Positions 47,772 to 64,000 are shown, numbered from the stretch's first letter. The stretch is DNA of 64,000 nt from an uncultured Gammaproteobacteria bacterium (GCA_963714975.1 CAVQQD010000002.1:1056001-1120000); one strand, 5' to 3'. Notes: a model not told the origin generated them from the sequence alone. Numbers and translations: made by a program.

Positions 47772-48125
47772 ATGGCTAGAAAAAAGAGTGTAATTTTACC
47801 CTCCCTGCAGCGAATTTTAACTGAGGTAGGGGAAAATATTCGTCTTGCGCGCTTGCGCAGAAAAATTTCTGCAGTCTTGTTAGCGGAGCGTGCAGGGATA
47901 TCTCGCAATACCTTAAGAGCCATAGAGCAAGGGGACCCCAAAGTAACATTTGGTGCTTATGCTAATGTTTTACTGTGCTTACGCTTAGAAAAGGATTTGA
48001 AATTACTAGCACGCGATGACGAGCTAGGGCGCAAACTACAAGATTTGGGTTTAGCTACTAAAGTACGGGCACCCAAACTAAAATCGAGAAATAAAGATGA
48101 ATACAACACAAAAGCGATCGATTGA
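47772..48125 (+). CDS. XRE-family HTH antitoxin (HipB-like)
   Basis: GENIRLARLRR..AERAGISR.TL.AIE.G; overlaps hipA. Confidence 0.85.
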   Translation: MARKKSVILPSLQRILTEVGENIRLARLRRKISAVLLAERAGISRNTLRAIEQGDPKVTFGAYANVLLCLRLEKDLKLLARDDELGRKLQDLGLATKVRAPKLKSRNKDEYNTKAID

Positions 48126-49374
48126 AGTCTGTGTCCACTGGCGAGGTTTACCTCAGCCTAGCTTGCTGGGAATGCTTTATATTACTCCTTCCCGAGGTAA
48201 GGAAATTTTTTCATTTGAATATAACCCTGATTGGCTGAGTAAAAATCAGGGTTATACTTTAGATCCTGCATTGCAATTATACTCAGGAATACAGTATACG
48301 CCCCAGGGCCAGGATAATTTTGGTATTTTCCTTGATTCCGCCCCTGATCGTTGGGGACGCTTTCTCATGAATCGTAGAGAAGCGCAGTTAGCTCGAGAGG
48401 CAGGACGCAAAGAACGAAGATTGCTCGAATCAGATTATCTCTTAGGGGTATATGATGAGAACCGTATAGGCGCAATTCGATTTCGCACAGATTCTAATAG
48501 CCCCTTTCTTTATTATAATAAAGCTTATGCTTCACCCCCTTGGACTTCTTTACGTGAATTGGAGTACGCCAGTTTAAATCTTGAAAATGCGGATGCAGAA
48601 AACAATCCAAATTATTCCAAGTGGTTGCAGATGCTAATTGCCCCAGGCGGTTCTTTAGGTGGTGCGCGCCCAAAAGCCAGCGTTATTGATGAAAATAAAC
48701 ATCTGTGGATTGCCAAATTTCCAAGCGCAAATGATGAACATGATATTGGTGCCTGGGAAATGGTTGCATATAAACTTGCGCAGCGCGCTCAAATTATTAT
48801 GCCTGAAGCAAAAGTAGAAAAATTTAATAGTCGTCATCACACTTTTCTTAGCAAACGTTTTGATCGAACCGGATCGGATGAGCGAATCCATTTTGCTTCC
48901 GCAATGACTTTATTGCAGCGTTTAGATGGTGAAGATTTTTCTGCTGGCGCGAGCTATTTGGAACTTGCAGAATTTATTGCCCAACAAAGTGCGCAACCTA
49001 ACCAAGATTTAGAGCAATTATGGCGCAGGATAGTGTTTTATATTTGCATATCCAATGTGGACGATCACCTGAGAAACCATGGTTTTATTCTGCAAGAAAA
49101 TGGTTGGATATTATCACCGGCATTTGATATTAATCCAGTAGCCAGCGGAAATGGTCTTAAACTGAATATTTCTGAGACCGATAACTCACAAAGTTTAACG
49201 CTTGCAAAAGAAGTTGCAGAATTTTTTCGAATAAAACCGAACCAGGCAGACAAAATTATTCAAGAAATTACCACTGCAGTGAAATACTGGCGAAAGGAAG
49301 CCAATAACTTGCATATTCCAGTCAGAGAACAAAACAATATGGAGCGAGCGTTCCAGCCTAGAGGGAGCCATTGA
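48097..49374 (+). CDS. hipA: HipA family toxin kinase
   Basis: [39 protein letters not shown]. Confidence 0.92.
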
Positions 49375-50029
49375 GCAAGGTATAAGTTCGCTGCATCTTA
49401 GCCGCCAACGCCAAATCATGAGTAACAATAACAAAACTCGTCTTTAATCGTTCGTTTAAATCGAACATTAAATCGATCACATGCCCCGCCGTCACTTGAT
49501 CCAAATTTCCGGTCGGTTCATCGGCCAAAACACAGACTGGGCGGTTCACTAAAGCCCGAGCAATAGCAACTCGTTGCCGCTCTCCTCCCGATAACTCTCC
49601 CAAACGATGCGACAAACGATGGCTTAAGCCCACCTGCTCTAACATTTCTGTGGCTCTTTCTGCCGCTTGTTTAGCCGTCACGTCGGCAATTAATAACGGC
49701 ATGGCCACATTTTCTAGGGCGTTAAACTCAGGCAATAAATGGTGAAATTGGTAGATAAACCCTAAATCAGCATTGCGTAATTGACTTTTTTTGCCTTCCG
49801 ATAAGCCATGAATATCAACTCCAGCGACTAATACTCGGCCAGCAGTGGGCCGGTCTAGACCACCTAACAAATGCAGCAAGGTACTTTTCCCAGTTCCAGA
49901 AGCACCTACAATCGCGATACGCTCACCCGCTGGCACCGCCAAGTTGATATCGACTAAAACTTCAACTTTTAACTTCCCATCTTTGAAAGTTTTGGCCACA
50001 TGCTCGGCTTGCAAAACAATTTCACTCAT
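49358..50029 (-). CDS. lolD: Lipoprotein-releasing ABC transporter ATPase
   Basis: [34 protein letters not shown]. Confidence 0.95.
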
Positions 50030-51272
50030 AACGCAGGGCCTCCGCTGGCTGTGTACGAGAAGCCTGCCATGCCGGATATAACGTAGCTAACAAACTCAAG
50101 CCTAACGCAATCACGCAAACCTGCCAAACATCGGACACTTGAATGCGCGAAGGCAGATAGTCCACTACATAAATCGAGGAAGAAATAAACGAAACATGAA
50201 ACACGTGCTGCAGAAAAGCCACTACTTCGGTGACATTATGCGCCAAAAGAATGCCACCAATTAAACCCAACAAGGTACCGACGCAGCCTACCACCAGTCC
50301 TTGCACAATAAAAGTCGCCATAATGGTCCGAGGCGTAGCGCCAAAAGTGCGAAGAATGGCAATTTCCGCTCGTTTATCATTCACAACCATCACTAAGGTC
50401 GAAACTAAGTTAAAGGCAGCTATCGCGATGATCAGTAATAAAATAAGGAAGATCATAGTTTTTTCCATGCGGATCGCCTTAAAATAAGTGCCTAATTCTC
50501 GGGTCCAATCGGTAATTAGATATTCCGCTGGCAGAACCTGTTGTAACTGCTCGGCCACCACCGGGGCAATATACAAATCACTCACCCTTAACCGCAGACC
50601 ACTGACCGCACCCCCCATTTGATATAACAATTGAGCATCGCGTAAATTAATAAAGGCCATGCCACGATCCATTTCTTGCCGACCATCCACATGAAAAATC
50701 CCTGCTACGGTAAATTGCTTAAACCGGGGGATGATCCCTAACGGAGAGGCATTAGCCTGCGGAGTGAATAAAATCACTTTATCCCCCAAACCTAATCCTA
50801 AATTTTCGGCAATGCCTTCCCCAATCACGATGCCAAATGCCTGGGGCTGCAACGCATCAAAGCTCCCTTGCACCAAATGCGCTGCCAGTTGCGATACCCG
50901 CGCTTCTTCCTGCGGTAATATCCCAGTGACCAATACCGGCGCAGAACTACCTAAATGGGAAAGCATTCCCTGCGCGCTAACAAAAGGAGCAGCCGCTTTG
51001 ACATGCGGTTGCTTTTCAACTAATTGTTGCAGTTGACTCCAATTGGCCAACCGACCCTCCACATCACTTACGGTGACATGATTAGCTAAATTAAATAATC
51101 GATTGCGAATCTCGAAATCAAAACCATTCATCACCGACAATACAGTGATCAGCACGGCCACTCCCAAGGCAATGCCGATCATCGAAGCTAATGAAATAAA
51201 CGAGACAAATTGATTGCGACGCTTGGCGCGGGTATAACGCAAGCCAATATAAAGTGCTAATGGTTTAAACAT
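50022..51272 (-). CDS. lolE: Lipoprotein-releasing ABC transporter permease (LolC/E, single copy)
   Basis: [44 protein letters not shown]. Confidence 0.85.
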
Positions 51273-51473: not shown

Positions 51474-53486
51474 TCATTTCTTCAGAAAACAATCCAACAC
51501 CTCGCGCGCCACCTCCTCAGTCAAAGGCTTTTCTAGCACCCCATTAATACCCGCAGCCGCACATTCTGCTTGCACTTTTTCAACATTATGGGCCGTCAGA
51601 GCCACAATCGGCACTGGATTTTTTCGGCCTTTTTCTAGGGTGCGAATATGCTTTGCCACTGCCAATCCACTCATATCTGTTAGCCCAATATCAGTAATAA
51701 TCAGCACATATTTATCCAATTCAAAAATTTCTAAAGCTTTCTCACCTGTATCCACAATATCAACTGTATAACCTAAGTGCGTGAGAATCGATTCCACGCC
51801 TTTTTGAGCCATCCGATTATCCTCAACCAACAAAATACGCGGACCTATCTTCTCTTCCTCGCTGGCAGCATCCCCAAGCGGTGCTAGCTTGGTAAACTTA
51901 GGCTTCACTGCTCTCGGTTTCAGGAATGCCTTGGCGGGTAGAAAAGGAAAGGTGATGGTGAAGCAACTGCCCTTACCCACTTCGCTGTCCACATCAATTT
52001 TTCCTCCCATCAAAGTGACAAATTTATGCACAATATACAGCCCAATCCCATGACCCTCAAATTTGCCTTCATAAGAAGGCGTCAAACGCGTAAAGCGCTC
52101 GAAAATGCTAGCGATTTTTTCTTGGGGAATGCCCATGCCGGTATCACGAACTTTTAAACAAAGTTCCTCTTTTTCTTTGCCAGTGTCTTCATCGCGAGTT
52201 TTCTGTAAGAGAATGTCCATGCTTATCGAGCCTTCCTCAGTAAATTTAATCGCATTGCCTAGTAAATTTAAAATTATCCGATAAAATCCCGGCGCGCTGG
52301 CATACACCATTTCAGGAATAGCGGGATCATAAGTGGAATAAAATCCTAAGCCTTTTTGTTTCATGGAAGGGGTCAACATCTCGACAAGCTGATCCGTTAT
52401 GGTTTGGGGATTGAAATTTTCATTGCTAAGTGCCACCCCTTCGGTTTCAATCCGCCCCATCTCTAAACAATTCATAAAAAATTCTATCAATTGCTTGCCC
52501 GAATTTTTAATCATCTGCACATTTTCATAATTATCTTCGAGAGCATCGGGCTCCTCGAGTTGCGTGCCGATCCTGTGCGCCATGGAAATAATACCCGCCA
52601 GCGGCGTTTTGACATCGTGACTCATGTTTTGGATAAAATCCGTTTTAGCACGATCGGAAGCTTCGGCGGCTTCTAAGGCTTCTTTTAATTCCTTCTCCAT
52701 TGCTTTGCGTTCAGTAATATCAGTGGCATTTCCAATAATGCCAATAATTTTTTCTTTATTTTCGTCATATAGGGGGGCTTTGTGGGAGAGAAATATTCTA
52801 ATTTCGTTGTTTAATATACCTGTTTCTTCTACGACCATGGGAATTCCAGATTGCATAACCTCTAGATCATTTTGTCGTAATCTATTAGTTACCTCATCAT
52901 CCCAACCCAATATTTTTGCAAAATCAAAAATACTTTTTCCAATCATTTCCTTGCCAGTTTTAAGTCCATATAATTGAGCTTCAGCATCATTTGCACCTAA
53001 GGTGACGGAATTTTTGTCTAACCAATAAATAGGGTCGGGTAGATTAGTCAGGATATTTTCCAAATATACATTTGTTAACCGAAATTTCTCCAGTGCATCT
53101 GATTTGGCTGTATCTAATGCAAGCTCTAAACGTTTCCTATCGCTAATATTTATTAAGGTGCCCACCACCCCAACCACCTCATCTTCTGGAGTACATAATG
53201 GTCGCTCAGTGACCAAATAACAAATTAATAATCCATTATGTAAAAATTCTAGCTCAAAACTATTTTCAGTCCTTGTCTCTATAATGCTTCTAGTGAAGGA
53301 TTCTAACTCTTGTGCTTTCGAACACCAAGGTAATTCATAGTCAGTTCTGCCAACTAATTCATCCAAATTGTCAAAATTAACCATTTCCAACATTTTTTGA
53401 TTTCCACCCTGATATATGTTACCCATATCTTTCCAATAGGCAGATATAGGTAAAGAAAGAAGCAAATCAAAATTAGAAAATTTCAT
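51474..53486 (-). CDS. Cytoplasmic PAS-PAS hybrid histidine kinase/receiver
   Basis: Two PAS/PAC blocks; NMSHDVKTPL, NAIKFT, DTGMG, GIGL; REC LLVEDN...TDIGL...KP; no TM. Confidence 0.92.
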   Translation of the reverse strand: MKFSNFDLLLSLPISAYWKDMGNIYQGGNQKMLEMVNFDNLDELVGRTDYELPWCSKAQELESFTRSIIETRTENSFELEFLHNGLLICYLVTERPLCTPEDEVVGVVGTLINISDRKRLELALDTAKSDALEKFRLTNVYLENILTNLPDPIYWLDKNSVTLGANDAEAQLYGLKTGKEMIGKSIFDFAKILGWDDEVTNRLRQNDLEVMQSGIPMVVEETGILNNEIRIFLSHKAPLYDENKEKIIGIIGNATDITERKAMEKELKEALEAAEASDRAKTDFIQNMSHDVKTPLAGIISMAHRIGTQLEEPDALEDNYENVQMIKNSGKQLIEFFMNCLEMGRIETEGVALSNENFNPQTITDQLVEMLTPSMKQKGLGFYSTYDPAIPEMVYASAPGFYRIILNLLGNAIKFTEEGSISMDILLQKTRDEDTGKEKEELCLKVRDTGMGIPQEKIASIFERFTRLTPSYEGKFEGHGIGLYIVHKFVTLMGGKIDVDSEVGKGSCFTITFPFLPAKAFLKPRAVKPKFTKLAPLGDAASEEEKIGPRILLVEDNRMAQKGVESILTHLGYTVDIVDTGEKALEIFELDKYVLIITDIGLTDMSGLAVAKHIRTLEKGRKNPVPIVALTAHNVEKVQAECAAAGINGVLEKPLTEEVAREVLDCFLKK

Positions 53487-56400
53487 GTTAAAACCTCACT
53501 GGAATAGGTGGAAGGGGATAAATAGTAATATTTAGCACATTCAGCAAAGTCAGCGTGCTTTTGAGAAAAATTTTGGCCATGCTCTAATGAAGATAAACAT
53601 TCGTCCATAACTTTAGCCAAAAATTTCACGTTTGGTTCCTGAAACATACTTTCATGACCTCCAGGGACTAAATAAAGCTCTATTGGAAATGGGGAATATT
53701 GTTCCCAATGATTATATAGTCCGTCAATATTCTTAAATATTTCTACTGTAACAGTTGCTTTAAATAGGGTCAATTTCGTATTTAAGAAAGGTGTTTTATA
53801 AGCTCTAAACATTTGAGACCTATGCCACTGTAAAGCAAGTAAATGTTCGGCATTTGAAATTCCTTTGGCCTGAAATTTATTTTTCATTGCATTATACTGA
53901 CGTCGCATATTAGCCTCAAAAAAAGCGCGCTCTTCTAACATTTGAGGGAAAGCTGCCCAGCCATCTAACAAACCAACAAAACCCACTTCCTCTCCTAATA
54001 TTTGCAATTGTTTTGCAATTTCTACACTGATATTGGCGCCACCCGAAGCTCCAGCAATTAAATAAGGCCCATGTTTTTGGACAGAACGAATAATACTAAT
54101 ATAATAAGTAGCCATTTCCTCAACGGTATTAAATATTATATTTTTTGTATCAATGCTTGGGTCTTGAATGGCATATATTGGACGACCTTGCTGCATATAA
54201 TGAGAAAGAGAAATATACCAAAATACAGTTCCACCCACTGGGTGAATTAGAAACAATGGATTATTATTCTCTCCTGATCGCAGTGAAATTAAGCATCTGT
54301 GTTTTTGGTCTAAATCTTGATGAAGCACTTTTTCAAGAAGTTTTCTTTCTTGGGATGCGGTGCTGATTAATTCCGCCATACGAATAACTGTTGGCTCAAT
54401 CAAAAAATCCCGTATTACCAATTCCACATTAAAAATTTTTTGAATCCAGGATAAAATCTGCAATATCGACAGTGAATTTCCTCCCAATTCAAAAAAATTA
54501 TCACGAATGCCAATAGGTTTCTTTGTTTGGAGTACCTTTTTCCATAGATGAATAATATTCTTTTCCTCTTTCGATCGCGGGGGTTCAAAGACTCTATGAC
54601 ACCGATCTCCATGAACATGACTAGGTAACCCTTCTTTGTCAATTTTCCCATTTTTAGTTAATGGAAATTTTTCTATAAAAACAAATAACTTAGGAGTCAT
54701 GTACTCAGGCAAACATCGATTCATTGATCTGTACAACTCTTGTGCATTTAATGTTTTATTCTTCTTAATAACATAAGCAACTAACTGTTTATATTTGTAG
54801 ATATTTTTTACTAGTACCACAGCATTAACAACGAATGGATGAGATTTTATCATTCGCTCCACTTCTCCTAACTCAATACGAAAACCTCGGATTTTGACTT
54901 GACTATCCACACGCCCCATAAATTCTAACATGCCACCTGGAGACCAACGAACCAAATCACCTGTCTTATATAATTTCAGAACATTATTTTGTATTTTGAC
55001 AAAATTAAAATATTTTTTCGAAAGAGCGCCATTATTTAAATAACCTCGCGCCAATCCATAACCACCTATATATAATTCACCAATCACTCCAATAGGGACA
55101 GGTTGTAAATGTTGATTCAAAACATAAAGTGAAACGTTGTTTATTGCTTTACCAATAAAACAACGCTCATCCTGAAAATCACAAAAAGCCATTGTGGCAC
55201 AAACCGAAGCCTCTGTGGGACCATAAGCATTAACTAGATGATGTCTTTTTTTGGACCATTGTTTCATTAATTGTATTGAACAAGCTTCTCCAGCAACAAT
55301 TATAGTCTTTAGATAAGGATAATCTATAAATGAAACTGTTTCTAAGATAGAAGGTGGCAGGGTTACAACAGAAATTTCATTTTCCTTGATAGTGTTACTT
55401 AAGATATTTCCAGGTAATAACTGGTTTTTTTCTGTCATAACTAAATTAGCACCAATTAATAATGCAGTGTAAATTTCCCATACAGAAGCGTCAAAACCAC
55501 ACGAAGCAAATTGCAAAATTTTATCATGTTCTGTTAGGTCAAGTTGTTTGATGGCTGAGCTTATGGTGTTAGTGATACCTAAGTGAGATATCATTACCCC
55601 TTTTGGATTGCCAGTTGATCCAGAGGTATAAACAACGTACGCTAAGTCGTTTTTGTTTATCGTGGTAAGCAAATTATTCTTGCATTTTGTTTCAATATCA
55701 GGTTGCACTAAGTTGATACTAATGCAGACTGGTTTAAAGATTAATTTATTAAAAATTGGCTTTATCCTATTGATTAAATGATTTTGAGTGATTAAAAACT
55801 TAGTTTTACAATCATTTAAAATATATTCAATTCTTTGTAATGGATTAGAAGAATCTATTGGTAAATATGCCGCGCCTATTTTAATTACTGCTAACATGGC
55901 AATGACAATTTCAAATCCGGGGTCAATAGTTAGAGCGAATAAAGTATCAGCAACATTCTCTGTGTGATAATGAATTCTAAGTTGCTCTTGCAGATAATGC
56001 GCAAGCTGATTCGCTTTAGAGTTTAGTGTTGAATAAGTCATACTCTTACTCTGAAAAAAAATGGCATTATTATCAGGTGTTTGTTGAACTTGATATTCAA
56101 ACCAATCTTTTATGTTTTCATACTTTAATATCTCACGATTTTGGTTCCATTTAATTAAAATCTGGTTTTGCTCTTCGGCAGATAAAATATTTAAATTAAA
56201 AACAGACTCATGAGGCTTTATTAAACCTTCCTCAATTAGGTTCTGGAAATGTTCAACAAGTTGAGTTAACATAGTATGATTAATGCGACTAGCATCATAC
56301 GCAAATTTAAGAGAAATTTTTTCCTGAGGGATTACCGCTAAAGTAAGCGCGTAGTGGGTAGGGTCATAAATTTCAATTTCATCGAAAGATGTGCCTAAAC

Positions 56401-59400
56401 CAGATAAATTTCCTATAGGATAATTTTCAACAACAAGTAACGTTTCAAATAGTTCGTGGGAAGCTGACTTCGGTTTATTGGCAATCCATTCCTGAATATC
56501 ACTGAGCGAAGCATAGCTATGATCTAATATACCAAACATGTTTTTTTGCGCAGTCTGCAAGTATTCCAATACACTCATCTCCTTGGTGTAGTTAAGTCTA
56601 ACGGGCAAGGTATTAATGAGCAACCCTAACATCTTATTTACATCATTTATTTCGGCAGGTCGCAAGGAAATTGTGGTGCCGAATAGAATGTCATCCGCCT
56701 GTGTATATCGGTGTAACAATAATCCCCAAATTGATTGGAAAAATGCGCTTAAAGTAAGCTTGTATGTTTTTAAAAAACTTCTAATGGAATGAGATAATGA
56801 ATTCCCAAGATCAACTTCCTTGAGACAATACTTGATGGAATGAGATTGGTTTTGAGGAAATAATATTCCCACCTGACTTAACAATCCTGGATTAATACTA
56901 ATATTCTTTAAATAATCCTGCCAAAATTGCCGGGCTTTAAACCGATTTTGTCGTTGCAGCCAATGGACATAATCTAAGTATTTGGGTGATGGTTCCCATG
57001 TCAAAATTTTATTGTCCCCCAGAGCAGAATAACGAGCGGCAAGCTCATTCAGTAACAGTGACATGGACCAACCATCCAGAATACAATGATGAAAAGTGAA
57101 AACAAGTATTGAACTTTCAGGAGAGGTTCGAATTAAAACAGCACGCAATAAAGGCAATTTATCCAGGGAAAAAGAAGCTTCTCTGTCGGCTTGGAGAAAA
57201 TCATGGAGACGCTTTTGGTGTTCCTGCTCAGGAACCTCGGTCCAATCATATTCTTGCCACAGAAAATTACAGTGCTGTTCTACCACTTGTAACGCTTCGC
57301 TAACATTTTCCCATACAAAGCGAGTTCGTAAACTCTCGTGCCGAGCAATGATCTCAGATAATGTTTTCTGCAAGAAGGGTGTATTAATAAGCTGGTTGAT
57401 TTTCCAACTGTATTGGGCGATATAGGCTCCTGAATCCTGCGAAGAAATTGATTGGAAAAGTATGCCTTTTTGTAGAGGAGTTAATGGGAAAGAAAAGTTT
57501 TCTGGTTGCTTGCGGGGGAAATTGGCTATAAAACGTGTAATTTCATCACGATAACTTGTGGCCATTCCATGTATTGTTTTTGCACTGTGTAAATTGTTGC
57601 TGTATTCCCAATAAACATGCAATCGCTGGTGTTTTATCATAGCTTCAATACTAATAACATGTGTCCGTAAATTTTTGGCATAAGAAACAGGCTTAATCCA
57701 TTGTAATTGCAGCGGACTGCCTTGAGCAAAGACTTGATCAAACCTCCCCCAATAATTAAAACTGATCTCCTGAGAGTATTTTTTTGGTTTCCTTTTTTTA
57801 TTTAGATAGCGGAAAACTCCATAATCAATTCCATCATTGGGGATAGAGCCTAGCTCTTGTTTAATCTCTTCAAGATTCTTCATAAAATCATGTGATTGAT
57901 CATAATGCAGTTTTACTGGAAACAAACTGGTAAACCATCCCATAGTTTGTGAGTAATTTGAACCAAGGACTTCGGATCGTCCATGAGACTCCAGGTCGAT
58001 TGAAAATTCTATTGCTCCAATCCATTCTGAAACCACTTTAGCTAAAGCGGTCAATAATATTTCATGAACACGAGTATTATTCTGCTGGGCAATTTGAGTC
58101 AGTAGCTTGGTTTCTGCACTGGTAAAGCTGATTTCAACGCAACAGGTAGTATCGTACAGGTTTTCTCCAAGGTTAAAATCTTTTGGGATTGTGACTTGCT
58201 GATCCTCTATAGCCTTCCAATAGGACCCTAATTTATGGTTTTTATTTTGATAAACATATCCTTGTAATGATTGAGACCAAGATTTAAAACTTGAACCCAG
58301 CAAGCCTTGAACTGTACTCTTGGTTACATGGGCCGAATAAATTTTCTCCATATCTTCCAGAAGAACCCGCCAAGAGACGCCATCAATCAGTAAATGGTGG
58401 ATCACGATCAATAGATAGGATTCCAACGCAGGGTTATTCTTGATTAAGTAAAACTTAGCTAAAGGGCCTTTGCGTAAATCAAAACCCAAATGGGCTTGAC
58501 GGATTAAGCCATCAACCACCTTGTCCCATTGCGCTTTATCAGCATTTTTGGCTTTGACCATTTCTATTAAATCCTCTGCTTGCAGGGGATGGTCGTCATA
58601 ATATTGAGTCCAGTGACTGCCAATTTTTTCAAAGCGCAATCTAAGCGTATGGTAGGTAGAAATTAATAGTTCGATCGATTTTCGTATTTTACTTAGATCT
58701 AGGTGGGGCGATAACTTTAGCAAACAGGCTTGACTAAATTGCTCTTTTTTTGCTAGTGGTAAATTAAAAAACCAATGCTGGATTGGGGTCAATGCTACCC
58801 GACCTTCGGGTTTGACGTCATGAATGGATTGTGCGGATAATTGCACCTTATCGGCCAACATCTCGATGCTAGAGTTTTCAAAAATTTGTCTTACTTGAAT
58901 CGTAATACCGTATTTCCTGGCCGCCGCACAAAGTTGCATCGCTACAATAGAGTCCCCACCCAAAGCAAAAAAGTCATCGGTGATTTTCACGGGGGTTTTA
59001 AATGTTTCCTCAAATATCTGTTTTAATAACGATAAAACTCCAGGTTGCAATGATTCTTGAAAATGCTTATCGCGTGAATAGGCTGGAGCATCCATTTTAT
59101 AGAAATATTCCGCCCATCGCGCAAGCTGTTTTTTATCTATTTTCCCATTTTTATTAAGTGGAATTTTATTGAGGGTATAAATTCGCTGCGGAATCATGTA
59201 AGAAGACAACCAGCTTTTTAGGGTGATTTTGAGTGATTCTGCATCATTAGTGTGATTAGGATCTTGGCTCAACACGACAAAGGCGATTAATTGCGTCTGG
59301 TTAAACGGGGTGTTATAGGTGATAACGACAGCTTGCTGGACGCCCTTGACCTTCGTTAACGATTTTTCGATTTCTCCTAACTCAATTCGAAAGCCACGAA

Positions 59401-61438
59401 GTTTAATTTGATCATCGATTCTGCCAATATATTCTAAATTGCCATCAGGCAACCATCTCACTAAGTCACCGGTTTTATATACATTGACCAGCTCAGAATG
59501 AATCGATAGGTTTAAAAATCGTTGCTGAGTTTCTTCGGGTAAATTTAAATAGCCACGCGCAATGCCCGACCCGCTCAGATACAATTCACCGACAGCGCCC
59601 AGAGGAATAGGCTTTTGAGTGTGATCTAAAACATAGACAGCACGGCTAGCTAAAGGCTTTCCAATATTAGAGCAGAGTAAATTCCAGGGCTCTTTTTCGG
59701 TACTCTTTAGAAACGTGGCATGGATCGTCGATTCGGTGATGCCGTACATATTGACTAGACAAGGCGTATCAAAACCATGGCGCGCAAACCAGCTGGACAG
59801 CGCTGGAAATGAAAGCTTTTCTCCACCAAAAATGACATAGCGTAATGCAAGTTTTTCCTGCTTCACTCGATCTATTTCAGCAAATTGATAAAATGCCGTA
59901 GGTGTTTGACTGAAGACGGTAATGCCTCGGCTAATCACCACCTCGTACAATGTTTCAGCAGATTGAATTACTTCCTTGGGCAGGATAATTAACGAGCCCC
60001 CGTGCAATAAAGCTCCAAAAATTTCCCACACGGAGAAATCGAAATTAAAGGCGTGGACACAACTCCAGACATCAGACTCATTAAATCCATAAATTTTCTG
60101 ACTTGAATGAAAAGTTGCAACAAGATTACCATGCTCCACTAAGACCCCTTTGGGCTTGCCCGTAGAACCGGAAGTGTAGATGACATTAGCAAGATCATGC
60201 TCAGCAATATCAAGGCTTACATTACTTACATTATTTTCAGTAATCGCAAAAATCTCTTCAATATTAATGACGTTATTATGCAGGCCTGAAAGTTCATTTC
60301 CCAATTGCACCGCAAATCGACAGCCAGTATCTTGCAGTATCCATTCGATTCTGGCGGAAGGAGACTCAGGATCAATCGGCACATAAGCACCCCCCGCTTT
60401 TAAAATCCCCAAAATCCCAATAATCATTTCGATACTGCGCTCCATGCAAATCGCGACTAAAGTTTCAGCTACCACCCCTTGCTGACGTAAGTAATGCGCG
60501 AGTTGATTGGCTTGTTGATTAAGCTCGCGATAGGTGAGTGATTGATTTTCAAAGCACACGGCGATTTTATTGGGATGTTTTTGAACTTGTTCTTCGAATA
60601 ATTGCGGAATGGTTTTATCGCGTGGATAGTCGATGTCAGTTTGATTCCAATCAATTAAGATTTGCTGCTGTTCTTGAGGTGTAAGTAGCGCTAAATCGGC
60701 AATGGAAGTTTCTGGTTGCGTGGTAATGGCGGTTAATAGAGTTTCTAAATGGCCAGGCATTTGTTGCAGGATGGTTTTTAAGTAGGGTTCTTGTGCTAAG
60801 CATTTTTGATCGACGTGCCAAGATAAACTACGATCTTTGGCAGATATCATCAACACCAAAGCAGCATGAGATTTTTGTAGCTGCTCGACTTCTCCCATAA
60901 CAACGGCAGTAAATACCGCTTGTTTGACTTCGGTTAAAGTTGGATAACGATAAAATATATCGGGTAAATAACTGCTTTTTTGCTGCATGGCCAGTAACTC
61001 AGCTTGTAATTGGGACACTACTTGGCCGAAGTGTAATCCGTCTTGTAAGGCAGTGAAATACGGTAGTTCTAAACTCGTCCTGGCATGGATGCCAGGATCC
61101 AGATCACTAGGATGTGAAGCCTTTTGACAAGGTAATTGCAGCAACACCCCTACTTTGGGTTGATTACCGAGACGATAGAGGTAGACGAGCCAGAGGGCTA
61201 ACAGCAAGGTGTTGAAATCATGAGTAGGGTAATGTTGGTGTAATAATTTTTGTAAAGGGGTGGGGAGGGATCCATTGTTGTAAATACCCCCTCTCCCTAA
61301 CCCTCTCCCACCTTCCCTCGCTAACGCTCGGGCGGGGGAGAGGGGACTGGAGACTTCCTTCTCCCCTTGTGGGAGAAGGTGCCCCTTCGACAGGCTCAGG
61401 GTAGGCTGGCGGATGAGGGGTGGGTTCTGCAAGTTCAC
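53483..61438 (-). CDS. Non-ribosomal peptide synthetase A-T-E-C-A-T-TE (main body)
   Basis: Two YTSGSTG.PKG A domains; T motifs GGDS and GGNS; E domain HHLLIDGVSW, GWFTSLFP; C domain HHCILDGWS; TE GASGG. Confidence 0.95.
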   Translation of the reverse strand: MNLQNPPLIRQPTLSLSKGHLLPQGEKEVSSPLSPARALAREGGRGLGRGGIYNNGSLPTPLQKLLHQHYPTHDFNTLLLALWLVYLYRLGNQPKVGVLLQLPCQKASHPSDLDPGIHARTSLELPYFTALQDGLHFGQVVSQLQAELLAMQQKSSYLPDIFYRYPTLTEVKQAVFTAVVMGEVEQLQKSHAALVLMISAKDRSLSWHVDQKCLAQEPYLKTILQQMPGHLETLLTAITTQPETSIADLALLTPQEQQQILIDWNQTDIDYPRDKTIPQLFEEQVQKHPNKIAVCFENQSLTYRELNQQANQLAHYLRQQGVVAETLVAICMERSIEMIIGILGILKAGGAYVPIDPESPSARIEWILQDTGCRFAVQLGNELSGLHNNVINIEEIFAITENNVSNVSLDIAEHDLANVIYTSGSTGKPKGVLVEHGNLVATFHSSQKIYGFNESDVWSCVHAFNFDFSVWEIFGALLHGGSLIILPKEVIQSAETLYEVVISRGITVFSQTPTAFYQFAEIDRVKQEKLALRYVIFGGEKLSFPALSSWFARHGFDTPCLVNMYGITESTIHATFLKSTEKEPWNLLCSNIGKPLASRAVYVLDHTQKPIPLGAVGELYLSGSGIARGYLNLPEETQQRFLNLSIHSELVNVYKTGDLVRWLPDGNLEYIGRIDDQIKLRGFRIELGEIEKSLTKVKGVQQAVVITYNTPFNQTQLIAFVVLSQDPNHTNDAESLKITLKSWLSSYMIPQRIYTLNKIPLNKNGKIDKKQLARWAEYFYKMDAPAYSRDKHFQESLQPGVLSLLKQIFEETFKTPVKITDDFFALGGDSIVAMQLCAAARKYGITIQVRQIFENSSIEMLADKVQLSAQSIHDVKPEGRVALTPIQHWFFNLPLAKKEQFSQACLLKLSPHLDLSKIRKSIELLISTYHTLRLRFEKIGSHWTQYYDDHPLQAEDLIEMVKAKNADKAQWDKVVDGLIRQAHLGFDLRKGPLAKFYLIKNNPALESYLLIVIHHLLIDGVSWRVLLEDMEKIYSAHVTKSTVQGLLGSSFKSWSQSLQGYVYQNKNHKLGSYWKAIEDQQVTIPKDFNLGENLYDTTCCVEISFTSAETKLLTQIAQQNNTRVHEILLTALAKVVSEWIGAIEFSIDLESHGRSEVLGSNYSQTMGWFTSLFPVKLHYDQSHDFMKNLEEIKQELGSIPNDGIDYGVFRYLNKKRKPKKYSQEISFNYWGRFDQVFAQGSPLQLQWIKPVSYAKNLRTHVISIEAMIKHQRLHVYWEYSNNLHSAKTIHGMATSYRDEITRFIANFPRKQPENFSFPLTPLQKGILFQSISSQDSGAYIAQYSWKINQLINTPFLQKTLSEIIARHESLRTRFVWENVSEALQVVEQHCNFLWQEYDWTEVPEQEHQKRLHDFLQADREASFSLDKLPLLRAVLIRTSPESSILVFTFHHCILDGWSMSLLLNELAARYSALGDNKILTWEPSPKYLDYVHWLQRQNRFKARQFWQDYLKNISINPGLLSQVGILFPQNQSHSIKYCLKEVDLGNSLSHSIRSFLKTYKLTLSAFFQSIWGLLLHRYTQADDILFGTTISLRPAEINDVNKMLGLLINTLPVRLNYTKEMSVLEYLQTAQKNMFGILDHSYASLSDIQEWIANKPKSASHELFETLLVVENYPIGNLSGLGTSFDEIEIYDPTHYALTLAVIPQEKISLKFAYDASRINHTMLTQLVEHFQNLIEEGLIKPHESVFNLNILSAEEQNQILIKWNQNREILKYENIKDWFEYQVQQTPDNNAIFFQSKSMTYSTLNSKANQLAHYLQEQLRIHYHTENVADTLFALTIDPGFEIVIAMLAVIKIGAAYLPIDSSNPLQRIEYILNDCKTKFLITQNHLINRIKPIFNKLIFKPVCISINLVQPDIETKCKNNLLTTINKNDLAYVVYTSGSTGNPKGVMISHLGITNTISSAIKQLDLTEHDKILQFASCGFDASVWEIYTALLIGANLVMTEKNQLLPGNILSNTIKENEISVVTLPPSILETVSFIDYPYLKTIIVAGEACSIQLMKQWSKKRHHLVNAYGPTEASVCATMAFCDFQDERCFIGKAINNVSLYVLNQHLQPVPIGVIGELYIGGYGLARGYLNNGALSKKYFNFVKIQNNVLKLYKTGDLVRWSPGGMLEFMGRVDSQVKIRGFRIELGEVERMIKSHPFVVNAVVLVKNIYKYKQLVAYVIKKNKTLNAQELYRSMNRCLPEYMTPKLFVFIEKFPLTKNGKIDKEGLPSHVHGDRCHRVFEPPRSKEEKNIIHLWKKVLQTKKPIGIRDNFFELGGNSLSILQILSWIQKIFNVELVIRDFLIEPTVIRMAELISTASQERKLLEKVLHQDLDQKHRCLISLRSGENNNPLFLIHPVGGTVFWYISLSHYMQQGRPIYAIQDPSIDTKNIIFNTVEEMATYYISIIRSVQKHGPYLIAGASGGANISVEIAKQLQILGEEVGFVGLLDGWAAFPQMLEERAFFEANMRRQYNAMKNKFQAKGISNAEHLLALQWHRSQMFRAYKTPFLNTKLTLFKATVTVEIFKNIDGLYNHWEQYSPFPIELYLVPGGHESMFQEPNVKFLAKVMDECLSSLEHGQNFSQKHADFAECAKYYYLSPSTYSSEVLT

Positions 61439-61729
61439 CCCTCATCCGGCCTGCGGCCACCTTCTCCCACAAGGGGAGAAGGAATGAGGACTTATTTTCG
61501 CGGTGATTAAAATTCAGGAAGGGAATTTTGGCAGGCTCTATGGATTGCCATTGGGAAACCCAGTAGGCTTCATCGCCTCCTTCGCTCCAGCATAATCCTT
61601 CGACCTTATTCCTTCTCCCCTTGTGGGAGAAGGTGGCCGCAGGCCGGATGAGGGGTGAACCATCCAAGCTCCCCCTCTCCCTAACCCTCTCCCACCTTCC
61701 CTCGCTGACGCTCGGGCGGGGAGAGGGGA
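61287..61729. repeat. Cluster of five GC-rich palindromic repeat units inside the NRPS gene
   Basis: Direct copies ~61287-61346 and ~61671-61729; inverted pair 61433-61485/61608-61660; unit 61357-61421 matches 41573-41636. Confidence 0.92.
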
Positions 61730-62635
61730 TAAAGACACTGCATCACCTTCTAAGGTACAAATCTGCCGAATGGCAATGTCGTAACTAGCAGTTGCAACGC
61801 GCCAATAATCCGCAGTAGCAGCAACGATTGTTCCAGGAGCTGCAGTCGATGGCTCGGGTAATAGTTCTAATTGAGTGATAATAAATTCATCTTCCCAGCT
61901 TCTTTGCTGGGATGACAACTTAAATTTCGGACAAGTAAAACGATTAGGATAAGAGCCAAATTGAGTAGCACGAAATAATCGCTCAATAGCTTCGGCACTG
62001 GCATTCCAATCAATCCAGCCATCGCCAGCAGGTTTTTGATGCAGGCCAAAATAGCTACGTTGACTTAAATCTTGAGGCTGGCATTGGTAACTGTGCTTCG
62101 CCAAAAATTGCACTAAATCCGGGAAGCTTTGCAGCGCGGCTTCGTAGCATTTGAGGTTTAAACTCAATGCGGTTTCATCTTCAGTAATCGGCACCATTAC
62201 TTGCTGCAAAATATCACCGGCATCGACAGTTTCAGTAGCTACATGCCAAGTAATGCCATGGGTCTGTTCTTGATTTAAGATCGCCCAAGAAGTGGCATGA
62301 ACTCCGGCATAACGGGGTAACGGTGCATCATGAAAATTAATCGCCAATTGCCGAGGCAGATTGAGTATCGCCGCAGGCAAAATCTGCGCATTGACGATGC
62401 TAAATAAATAATCAAAGGGAGTTTTGTTGAGTGCTTCCTCGGCGGCTGCTAGAGAGACATAGTGAGGAATTCTCTGTTGCAAGGCCCATAGTTCTGCGGT
62501 TTCATACGCAGAAATAATACCTAGTATTTGCTGTCCTTGTTGTTGGATAATTTTGGCACATTCCAGATGGAGATTATCCTCTCCAATGATAAAACAAGTG
62601 AAAGTATCGGGAGACATAGAATTGAATGACTTCAC
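61538..62635 (-). CDS. NRPS N-terminal formyltransferase (F) domain, in the same frame as the NRPS body
   Basis: INFHDAPLPRYAG, HGITWH, DAGDIL; 62635-61438 is a multiple of 3. Confidence 0.88.
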   Translation of the reverse strand: MKSFNSMSPDTFTCFIIGEDNLHLECAKIIQQQGQQILGIISAYETAELWALQQRIPHYVSLAAAEEALNKTPFDYLFSIVNAQILPAAILNLPRQLAINFHDAPLPRYAGVHATSWAILNQEQTHGITWHVATETVDAGDILQQVMVPITEDETALSLNLKCYEAALQSFPDLVQFLAKHSYQCQPQDLSQRSYFGLHQKPAGDGWIDWNASAEAIERLFRATQFGSYPNRFTCPKFKLSSQQRSWEDEFIITQLELLPEPSTAAPGTIVAATADYWRVATASYDIAIRQICTLEGDAVSLSPLPARASAREGGRGLGRGGAWMVHPSSGLRPPSPTRGEGIRSKDYAGAKEAMKPTGFPNGNP

Positions 62636-62678
62636 GTTGGGGTTTTAAATTTTCCCTCCTTATTAAATTCCTAAAATT

Positions 62679-62841
62679 GTCATTCGAAGCAAGGCGAAGA
62701 ACCTCCCCTGGGCAAAATACCTGAATTTCAGGTATAAACCTAGATTCGGCAGTAGAAACCTACTGCCGAATCTAGGATAAAAAACTTCCCTGCTATGCTG
62801 CCACTTACAAAGGAGGCCCTTCAATTCGCTCAGAATAACGA
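62679..62841. repeat. Composite palindromic repeat upstream of the NRPS
   Basis: Perfect 17-bp stem cctagattcggcagtag/ctactgccgaatctagg (62739-62776, partial copy 45189-45216) nested in a degenerate gtcattc.gagc...gctcagaataac element. Confidence 0.65.
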
Positions 62842-62999
62842 TCGGTGGGCCGGTTGCACTTGCACCCTTACCTATCTAGGTCGACAGTTTACTAGCTTAA
62901 GGAAAAATTAACAAGTGTAGCAAAAGATTTATAAAAATATCCTCACAATGCTGCGTTAATGGGAAAGGATAGCCAATAGTAGCTCAAAAACCACTGCGG

Positions 63000-64000
63000 C
63001 TAAGCCCCCCTATCAATAACTTTCGCTGAGCTGCCATTTTCACAAGCAGTAATTAATTCATTTTGCAGGGGCATCAAATCTTGGCGATTTTTTTCACCCA
63101 GGGGAGCTGTTTGGTTGACTTCACTCAATGAGGTGGTGCTAGAGCAACTAGATCCAAAGAAAGCCGATTGACTGGCATGGAGAGAAGGAGGAGTGCTAAT
63201 CGATGATGGTATTGTAACTAGGGTTTGCTGTGTCTCCAGGCTAGATTGTGGCATAAGGTGGGTGCTTTCCTTTTTTTCTGGTTCCTTAGGCGTCTTAATA
63301 TCGGTGGGTCGCGTAGAGACAAATTGGCTGCCATCGTTTAGCTTTTTTCCAGTAGAAGAGTTAGGGCTAATACTAGGTTGCGCCGTTTTTTCTTTTACTT
63401 CACTCTCTTGGACGACTTGCCATAATTGATCGAGCTGCTTGACCAATAATTCAGCCTCAGGACGTTTTTCAGGTGCTTGCCAACACTCTTGAACAATCGT
63501 TTTAAATCCTGCAGGTGTATCAGGTGGAAAAGTTTCTTTCTTTCCACCTATAATCAAATCGACAAGCATACCTGTCACTTCTTTATAGGGTGCTTTACGG
63601 CTGGCTAACTCCCACAGTATCATACCTGCGCTATACACATCCGATTTTTTTGTGGACGGGTTACGTTGGAGAATTTCAGGAGCAGCCCACAATATACTGC
63701 CTTGAAAATCACTGCCTTGAAAATCTTCTTCAGGGATCGCTGCAGAGCTGGTTTTAAACTTTGCTGAGCCAAAGTCAGCTAATTTAGCACGACCATTACT
63801 ATTGAGCAGAACATTGGGGCTTTTTAAATCACAATGCAAAATATCTTTATTGTGTAAATCACGTAGACCAATACTGATATCTAAGCCAATACGATAACGG
63901 GTATCCCAAGAGATATTTTGTCTACTGTGTAATAAATCATATAAGTTACCTCCCGGCATATATTCCATCACCAAGCAATAATGTGGTTTTTCTAAGCTGA
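63000..64000 (-). CDS. Eukaryote-like protein kinase (TKL-like), 5' end outside window
   Basis: VMEYM.GG.L, HCDLKSPNVLL, DFG, WAAPE, SDVYS.GMILWEL, CW...PEKRP. Confidence 0.9.
   Translation of the reverse strand, partial: SLEKPHYCLVMEYMPGGNLYDLLHSRQNISWDTRYRIGLDISIGLRDLHNKDILHCDLKSPNVLLNSNGRAKLADFGSAKFKTSSAAIPEEDFQGSDFQGSILWAAPEILQRNPSTKKSDVYSAGMILWELASRKAPYKEVTGMLVDLIIGGKKETFPPDTPAGFKTIVQECWQAPEKRPEAELLVKQLDQLWQVVQESEVKEKTAQPSISPNSSTGKKLNDGSQFVSTRPTDIKTPKEPEKKESTHLMPQSSLETQQTLVTIPSSISTPPSLHASQSAFFGSSCSSTTSLSEVNQTAPLGEKNRQDLMPLQNELITACENGSSAKVIDRGA

Follow-up and report, generated by a model that had tools for sequence, protein, structure and literature searches.

A lineage-specific synthetase-kinase cassette present six times in one gammaproteobacterial genome: a candidate make-and-sense unit

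Introduction

In linear gramicidin synthetase LgrA (F-A-T; PDB 5ES5 and 6MFZ), a formyltransferase (F) precedes the first adenylation (A) and thiolation (T) domains of a nonribosomal peptide synthetase (NRPS). The locus reported here begins in a similar way. It lies in a stretch of 64,000 nucleotides from an uncultured Gammaproteobacteria bacterium (GCA_963714975.1, CAVQQD010000002.1:1056001-1120000), which as a whole we call the window, and it comprises an F open reading frame (ORF), an NRPS and a soluble hybrid histidine kinase at positions 51474-62635. The window locus, termed copy E, belongs to a two-gene cassette that is specific to this lineage and present in six copies in this genome; in copy E, a repeat insertion recently cut F from the synthetase. 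As discussed below, the cassette may be a unit that makes and senses a small dipeptide.

Unlike that of LgrA, the F domain here keeps both Fmt-like subdomains, and among solved structures it comes nearest to ArnA, FDH and Fmt (E 5e-18 to 1e-12), the match to LgrA F reaching only 1e-6. Also unlike LgrA, a repeat-encoded linker of ~150 aa and a C-lobe remnant of a condensation (C) domain lie between F and A, and F is a separate ORF in the window copy.

A related bacterial group provides another comparison, the Legionella 'cluster C', which is described in the main text of its report as a monomodular F-A-T-Red NRPS with an N-formylated product predicted in silico (Tobias et al. 2016, PeerJ 4:e2720, PMC5126622). 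The cassette resembles cluster C in its formylating start and in the small N-formylated product that is predicted, whereas it has two modules with epimerization and thioesterase (TE) domains in place of one module with reductase release. The word 'kinase' is absent from that main text, the supplement of which could list neighbouring genes.

On the side of sensing, VqmA of Vibrio cholerae has a cytoplasmic PAS domain that binds the small amino-acid-derived signal DPO, and the first PAS domain of the window kinase matches VqmA in sequence. VqmA, unlike the window kinase, is a PAS-HTH transcription factor, and the DPO synthase is, in the sources consulted, a dehydrogenase and not an NRPS. The layout of the cassette, in turn, resembles that of agrBDCA and comQXPA, in which conserved flanks surround a hypervariable block of signal genes and sensor half, and variation spares the catalytic half of the kinase. 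The pherotypes of those systems are alleles between strains, with ribosomal peptide signals and membrane kinase receptors. In contrast, the variants described here are paralogs in one genome, with putative NRPS-product signals and soluble kinases. In the literature searched, supplements not being covered, no unit of F-NRPS and kinase, or of cyclodipeptide synthase (CDPS) and kinase, is described.

Results and Discussion

Six copies of the cassette in one genome

The cassette genes of the window are as follows.

61538..62635, minus: F ORF, 365 aa (Pfam Formyl_trans_N and Formyl_trans_C)
53483..61438, minus: NRPS ORF, 2651 aa (Pfam AMP-binding twice, PP-binding twice, Condensation three times, Thioesterase)
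51474..53486, minus: soluble hybrid histidine kinase, 670 aa (Pfam PAS_4 twice, HisKA, HATPase_c, Response_reg)

The stop codon of the NRPS (TGA, 53483-53485) overlaps the ATG of the kinase (53484-53486) in a 4-nt ATGA, and GAGG stands 7 nt upstream of this ATG, so that both the overlap and the ribosome-binding site read in the first-pass annotation were found again. The F domain occurs six times in the 2.56-Mb genome, with 86-100% amino acid identity. The copies are listed here with their positions on contigs C2 and C3.

Copy A, C2:14772-25935: unbroken F-NRPS of 3030 aa; kinase of 694 aa, 14-nt overlap with the NRPS end
Copy B, C3:802990-814153: unbroken F-NRPS of 3006 aa; kinase of 721 aa, 23-nt overlap by ORF call
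Copy C, C2:394976-395905: F remnant only; one-PAS kinase 20 kb away
Copy D, C2:1226605-1216061: NRPS in four ORF pieces; kinase in two pieces, 23-nt gap after the NRPS
Copy E, the window: F cut off, NRPS body of 2651 aa; kinase of 670 aa, 4-nt overlap
Copy Fz, C2:1176637-1168113: F cut off, frameshift near the end of the second A domain, truncated in TE; no kinase

As shown in the list, five copies retain an NRPS body; in four of them (A, B, D and E) the kinase directly follows the NRPS, and the fifth, Fz, is truncated inside TE. Counted from the side of the kinase, five of six kinase copies touch an NRPS gene. A further kinase copy, G (C3:489687-491285), has a single, different PAS domain on the same catalytic core; 80 nt beyond its end begins the gene for a free-standing A-T-TE protein of 973 aa with the specificity code DAWTYTCFGK (whole locus C3:489687-494287).

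Conserved ends and a variable core

When the window cassette was compared with its own genome by blastn, it fell into three parts.

60360..62936, minus: conserved head (leader, F, linker, C-lobe remnant, first A domain to core motif A2), 84-90% nucleotide identity to the five other copies
52722..60359, minus: variable core (from the core of the first A domain to TE, and the PAS-PAS sensor), no nucleotide-level match to paralogs, 28-51% amino acid identity per domain
51478..52721, minus: conserved tail (kinase DHp-CA-REC), 84-94% nucleotide identity to five other copies, ending at the kinase stop codon

At the protein level, copy E is 88-99% identical to its paralogs in the head and 28-51% identical in every body domain; among all copies, the NRPS bodies and PAS sensors share 19-53%. 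Because the best relatives of the epimerization region outside this genome, in a collection of 5.8 billion proteins, are at most 35% identical, these NRPS bodies appear to be about as distant from each other as from unrelated NRPSs. Synonymous divergence (dS) is 0.16-0.46 in head and tail, as against about 30-45% amino acid identity in the core.

Among copies A, B and Fz, module 1 is shared through the epimerization domain (64-99% over segments of 100 residues). Identity is 19-48% in the region that begins with the C domain and includes TE and the kinase sensor, and it rises again to 80-95% in the kinase core. In all cases the variable core takes in NRPS module 2, TE and the PAS sensor. In an alignment of five kinases the sensors were likewise variable, and the sequence was almost invariant from DHp onward. 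Even the sensor architecture varies, with two PAS domains in E and A, another N-terminus in B, and one PAS domain in C and G. That is, the specificity parts of synthase and sensor vary together, as judged from only four complete pairs that are kin to each other, and no pair of copies keeps the sensor while differing in module 2 and TE, nor the reverse.

The synthetase and its predicted product

The domains of the NRPS were assigned by Pfam.

about 60656-61219, minus: C-lobe remnant (Condensation profile positions 250-456, 26.6 bits, below the cut-off of 30.6)
about 59144-60598, minus: A1
58850-59029, minus: T1
57509-58804, minus: epimerization domain (Pfam Condensation; best solved matches the epimerization domains of GrsA, 5ISW, and TycA, 2XHG)
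56156-57490, minus: C
about 54644-56071, minus: A2, best solved match the LgrA A domains (E 1e-163)
about 54359-54556, minus: T2
53639-54259, minus: TE

All core motifs are present in the window NRPS (A3-A10, the T serines, two HHxxxDG, GxSxG). Thus the A, T, epimerization, C, A, T and TE set is complete, as in a dimodular NRPS with epimerization and TE release. The first-pass annotation had read F-A-T-E-C-A-T-TE, where E denotes epimerization. All of these domains exist, and the solved matches agree with an epimerization domain after T1; a single F-NRPS ORF does not exist, since three stops cut off F, and the C-lobe remnant precedes A1. Fusion of F in one polypeptide to the first A-T was found in paralogs A (3030 aa) and B (3006 aa) and not in the window.

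We then considered the specificity codes, whose positions were mapped by motif on the GrsA numbering. The alignment gave DFWSIGMIHK for A1 and DAWTIAAVCK for A2, exactly as previously read by eye. The A2 code agrees at nine of ten positions with the GrsA Phe code, given as DAWTIAAICK in the portion of the source consulted (PMC4831472). The A1 code agrees at eight of ten positions with each of DFWNIGMVHK and DFWSVGMVHK, both of which stand among the Thr-type codes in the consulted portion of another source (PMC12283262). The codes of the other copies differ: DAWTIAAICK/DILQLGLVWK in A, DAWTIAAICK/DVQFYAEVVK in B, DVLQLAIIYK/DFW..FDMVHK in D and DAWTIAAICK/DFWNIGMIH(K) in Fz. For the window copy, the product proposed earlier, N-formyl-D-(allo)Thr-L-Phe, is doubtful, since F is severed from the synthetase.

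One gene of the phosphopantetheinyl transferase family (PF01648) was found in the genome, and no MbtH gene was found in it (93.75% complete). Further large NRPS loci lie at C2:230568-255484, C2:934672-951813, C3:739509-751046 and C3:186966-190178, a heavy load for 2.56 Mb.

The kinase and its sensor

The kinase has the following domains, again by Pfam.

53127-53456, minus: PAS1
52704-53063, minus: PAS2
52443-52649, minus: HisKA
51942-52292, minus: HATPase_c
51504-51836, minus: receiver (REC)

HisKA, HATPase_c and the receiver score above the Pfam cut-offs, and H290 and D599 are invariant in the alignment of five paralogs; from their motif positions we take them to be the phosphorylated His and the acceptor Asp of the receiver. 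In a scan for transmembrane segments, no stretch of 19 residues reached a hydrophobicity of 1.6 (maximum 1.45), and the earlier description of a PAS-PAS hybrid kinase without such segments was borne out. The sensor is predicted to fold as a tandem PAS (pLDDT 93.6). Its PAS1 (aa 11-120) matches 6UGL, 6KJU and 6IDE by phmmer (E 1.2e-4), which the consulted part of the literature gives as VqmA DPO-receptor entries (PMC8284805).

Hpt domains occur at two places in the genome. At C2:270917-271615, a frame of 290 aa carries a receiver, 46% identical to that of the cassette kinase, followed by Hpt, and might be a next phosphorelay step.

Related pairs in other genomes

The EF-Tu of this genome is no more than 81% identical to those of assorted beta- and gammaproteobacteria, which gives no useful placement. 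The order comprises nine genomes including this one. In the family, the only F-NRPS outside this genome is a protein of 3083 aa with about 27% identity (genome G003), and its neighbourhood contains no cassette kinase, CDPS or receiver. Among the genome contigs searched, one distant relative of the F domain was found (29% identity).

In a class sample of 400 genomes, four of the 399 others had a sensor match at E<=1e-35. One pair, in a genome of another family of the class (G163, C41:11251-19866) whose order comprises one genome, is of particular interest. There an A-T-C-A-T-TE NRPS of 2203 aa, with the codes DAFFLGVTFK and DVFVLACTFK and without F or epimerization domains, ends 9 bases before a multi-PAS kinase of 664 aa that is 36% identical in the sensor and lacks a receiver. 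The NRPS-kinase pairing thus occurs there independently. Upstream of it lie a 1502-aa ankyrin protein and a 1790-aa protein without a Pfam match.

A second kind of dipeptide-making enzyme stands near the cassettes themselves. Divergently upstream of copies A-D are a 267-aa gene without a Pfam match, a 465-aa membrane PAS kinase and a 131-aa receiver (at copy A, C2:11328-13934), and a fragment of this trio lies upstream of Fz. The profile of the 267-aa family matches CDPS structures (5OCD, E 3e-80). We collected 20 loci of this synthase from other genomes, in records titled Legionella, Tatlockia, Coxiellaceae, Rickettsiaceae and unnamed gammaproteobacteria. The synthase adjoins a homologous PAS kinase in 19 of them, the twentieth ending at a contig edge, and a receiver is present at 13. 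Like the cassette, these modules place a dipeptide-making enzyme beside a PAS_4 kinase, which is 32-37% identical to the hybrid kinase over up to 700 aa; they differ in that the enzyme is tRNA-dependent and the kinase usually has transmembrane segments.

What the cassette may do

It seems to us quite possible, though somewhat short of probable, that the cassette is a make-and-sense unit, used for autoinduction or product feedback, and that its copies are separate chemical channels. We think so because the tightly coupled gene order was long kept, because synthetase body and sensor vary jointly between conserved ends, and because homologous PAS kinases recur beside two kinds of dipeptide-making enzymes. 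That is, each synthetase would release a small dipeptide with a D-residue at position 1, which would be N-formylated where F is attached. For the window copy the prediction is D-Thr(-like)-L-Phe, which probably no longer receives a formyl group or receives it only in trans. In the adjoining kinase, the variable PAS sensor would bind this product, or respond to its build-up, inside the producing cell, and the signal would then pass via the nearly identical DHp-CA-REC core into a shared phosphorelay.

A number of observations weigh against this reading. At more than 45% identity, the cassette kinase is absent from all eight other genomes of the order (best 37-45%). A search with the kinase profile returned eight loci from genome contigs of 185,579 species, all with at most 33% identity, and 78 loci from metagenome contigs, all with at most 34%, and none of these 86 distant loci had an NRPS or F match. 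One of the six strong sensor-homologue loci outside this genome adjoins an NRPS. Within the genome, the common gene order of the paralogs is no independent evidence, because they descend from one another; three sister copies (C, D and Fz) are visibly decaying, and F of the window copy is severed. The conserved ends could result from gene conversion alone. In addition, the kinase is cytoplasmic, and the locus lacks a linked exporter.

The likeness to VqmA should be read with the same care. The residues F67, F99 and K101, which according to the consulted part of a preprint hold DPO in VqmA (bioRxiv 10.1101/2019.12.19.881847), correspond in the alignment to L61, V92 and E94 of the window kinase. 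A fold search ranks generic tandem-PAS sensors (LOV-HK, DosP, NifL, FixL) first and VqmA at 39-49; in Foldseek, 6UGL_B (rank 49) superposes with an rmsd of 3.6 A over 124 columns at 22% identity. In addition, this PAS type is very common, with 8110 representatives at E<=1e-10. Since the DPO contacts differ, the top folds are generic and the PAS type is common, the likeness appears to be a lead and not a membership.

Several of these points are what one would expect if the kinase were an ordinary cluster-situated regulator that responds to another intracellular cue (redox, a metabolite or a host-derived compound) and switches the NRPS operon or other genes. The core would then reflect old divergence of paralogs, and the ends would have been homogenised by gene conversion, with which the dS of the ends and the low identity of the core agree. 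The generic top folds fit such a regulator, as do the abundance of the PAS type, which numerous multi-PAS proteins contain (36,933 representatives at E<=0.001, with as many as 27 stretches in a single protein), and the five of six sensor homologues outside this genome without an NRPS neighbour. However, it would not be expected under this explanation that sensor and module 2 with TE never vary apart, or that the sensor architecture itself changes between copies. The tight coupling, kept in four copies and recurring in the G163 pair, and the CDPS beside homologous kinases in 19 of 20 loci also argue against it. We regard this explanation as possible and, on the whole, somewhat unlikely.

The proposal of the first-pass annotation that synthetase and kinase form a signal synthase and sensor pair thus gains from the six copies, the joint variation, the G163 pair and the VqmA match, and it loses where the DPO contacts and the gene order outside this genome are concerned. 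This order is kept in four of five own paralogs with a body and in G163, and it was found in none of the eight related genomes and at none of the 86 distant loci. The extracellular autoinducer loop of the lqsA/lqsS type, named there as a parallel, is not the closest model because the kinase is cytoplasmic.

Returning to the make-and-sense unit, we tentatively suggest a wider form of it, which we consider rather doubtful as a whole. In this form each cassette would make its own (formyl-)D-Xaa-L-Yaa dipeptide and carry a tuned, soluble VqmA-like PAS kinase, with all channels private and feeding one phosphorelay. New channels would arise when blocks of NRPS body and sensor are exchanged by recombination at head and tail. 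Together with the CDPS and kinase trios, the cassettes would form an undescribed dipeptide signalling language of Legionella-type intracellular bacteria.

If the kinase does read the synthetase product, the pair would represent a dipeptide signal that an NRPS makes and a PAS kinase in the cytoplasm receives, and six diversified versions in a small genome would be a natural specificity matrix. The poorly understood tiny NRPS products would then be tied to two-component signalling in relatives of intracellular pathogens, and conserved recombination handles could shuffle the specificities of NRPS and receptor together.

The F domain and the repeat block

The F ORF carries the N and C subdomains of the formyltransferase at aa 63-299 (PF00551, 3.1e-18; PF02911, 8.7e-8; both above cut-offs), followed by ~65 aa of translated repeat up to the first in-frame stop. 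Its start is either GTG 62635, as given by the ORF caller, or ATG 62617, the codon at which the paralogs have their own ATG starts when aligned. In a HMMER alignment, the window F has the same residues as ArnA at the Asn-x-His and Asp of the active-site motifs, and we take these residues to be catalytic. The ratio of nonsynonymous to synonymous divergence (dN/dS) is 0.10-0.17 for F overall and 0.10-0.15 for the window F against its paralogs. Because of this ratio and the aligned active-site positions, the window F itself looks functional.

F and the NRPS share a frame, in which three stops intervene (61538-61540, 61514-61516 and 61442-61444). These stops sit in a composite of short dispersed palindromic repeats (61287-61721) with 83 matches in the genome. 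The following features describe the region.

61193..61732, no strand: repeat composite block, 540 bp, in the F-to-NRPS linker, which shifts the frame twice and carries three in-frame stops
61218..61667, minus: ORF of 149 aa in an alternative frame, encoding the linker sequence that is read in frame in the unbroken copies A and B

Repeat units added on both sides of the window linker push the frame out and then back. It is clear that a repeat insertion recently cut F from the synthetase in the window copy. The block is 98-100% identical to that of Fz, whereas its flanks are 77-95% identical and dS between the F domains of E and Fz is 0.43. By this comparison, the disruption is young, and copying between the two loci has spread it.

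Sequencing error was considered as a source of the stops and rejected, as the same block with its own indels is present in Fz, 58 kb away. Two soil-metagenome DNA runs of one study contain 0.07-0.09 of the window's sequence words, and most of what aligns is single repeat units that have other surroundings; no RNA run is listed as containing the sequence. From these runs, two short contigs (166 and 144 nt, depth 2-3) match 61679-61843 and 61495-61638 almost exactly; since they may stem from the source sample, they are no independent confirmation of the stops.

Rickettsia palindromic elements and similar repeats are translated inside genes. The repeats here are alike in being short, dispersed and palindromic and in being read in frame in the F-NRPS linker of copies A, B and D. 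They are unlike those elements in the window copy and Fz, where extra units shift the frame and break the gene. Whatever its function, the locus is an example of a mobile palindromic repeat that has split a large synthetase gene, and the split lies at a linker which its sister copies translate in frame.

This damage raises the question of whether the window copy is a dying relic, in which the loss of F cost the synthetase its translation start or capping, no functional product is made, and the frames are still open only because the damage is recent. The three stops and the out-of-frame linker would agree with this, as would the same block in Fz, which is also frameshifted and truncated, and the fragmented copies C and D. 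The window copy further lacks the divergent trio of CDPS, kinase and receiver that accompanies A-D, and its leader deviates from the others. On the other hand, ~8 kb of NRPS and ~2 kb of kinase have stayed free of stops at a G+C content of 34-41%, every core motif is preserved, and the F ORF is intact with its active-site residues aligned. GTG 61438 or TTG 61432, just behind a GAGGGG run in the repeat, could start the 2651-aa ORF. The long repeat-encoded linker of A and B, which is probably flexible, suggests that F is only loosely tethered anyway. We consider it unlikely that the window copy is a relic.

The leader upstream of F is shared by the cassettes, as seen by blastn and in an alignment of six upstream regions.

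62636..62936, minus: conserved leader or promoter block upstream of F (~300 bp), common to six of six cassette copies

The leader of the window copy differs from the others over about 62700-62820. A perfect 17-bp inverted repeat with a 4-nt loop (62739-62776) is found in this leader only and replaces a segment common to the other five. An Rfam search of the conserved leader gave no family at E<=1 except a chance miRNA match, and a scan for promoters and terminators gave no terminator-like site and only weak promoter-like sites.

Neighbouring genes

The cassette genes of the window and those next to them lie on the minus strand, in the order Ser/Thr kinase gene, F ORF, NRPS ORF, hybrid kinase ORF, lolCE and lolD.

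63000 to beyond the window end, minus: eukaryote-like Ser/Thr kinase gene
50022..51272, minus: lolCE (TIGR02212, 493 bits, cut-off 362)
49358..50029, minus: lolD (TIGR02211, 321 bits, cut-off 308)

The earlier statement that no transporter is adjacent is literally wrong, as lolCE and lolD come next on the same strand. Both exceed the NCBIfam equivalog cut-offs set for the housekeeping Lol system, by which they were ruled out as a dedicated exporter; they are lipoprotein-release genes that flank the cassette and lie outside it. Because of this assignment, the statement holds in the sense that the locus has no dedicated transporter.

Paralogs of the eukaryote-like Ser/Thr kinase gene, most with ankyrin repeats, adjoin cassettes A, B, C, D and E. 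Those at C2:8594-10486, C3:796550-799228 and C2:385742-388420 share 67-77% nucleotide identity with the window copy (63000-64000 and beyond). Next to copies B and A there are also a macro-domain gene and a UvrD-like helicase gene.

N-formyl peptides are established host ligands, and dipeptides aimed at a eukaryotic host (by formyl-peptide mimicry, chemoattraction or enzyme inhibition), with the kinase only timing production, would suit the genes just named and the ankyrin protein beside the G163 pair; but we think this very unlikely, as the locus has neither a linked exporter nor a secretion signal, a D-residue at position 1 and a length of two residues are unlike the known formyl-peptide receptor agonists, and the variation of the sensor with the synthetase would be left unexplained.

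On the opposite strand, an ORF of 425 aa (48097-49374, plus) overlaps the end of lolD and has a weak match to the HipA/YjjJ family (E 2e-13), far below the cut-off.

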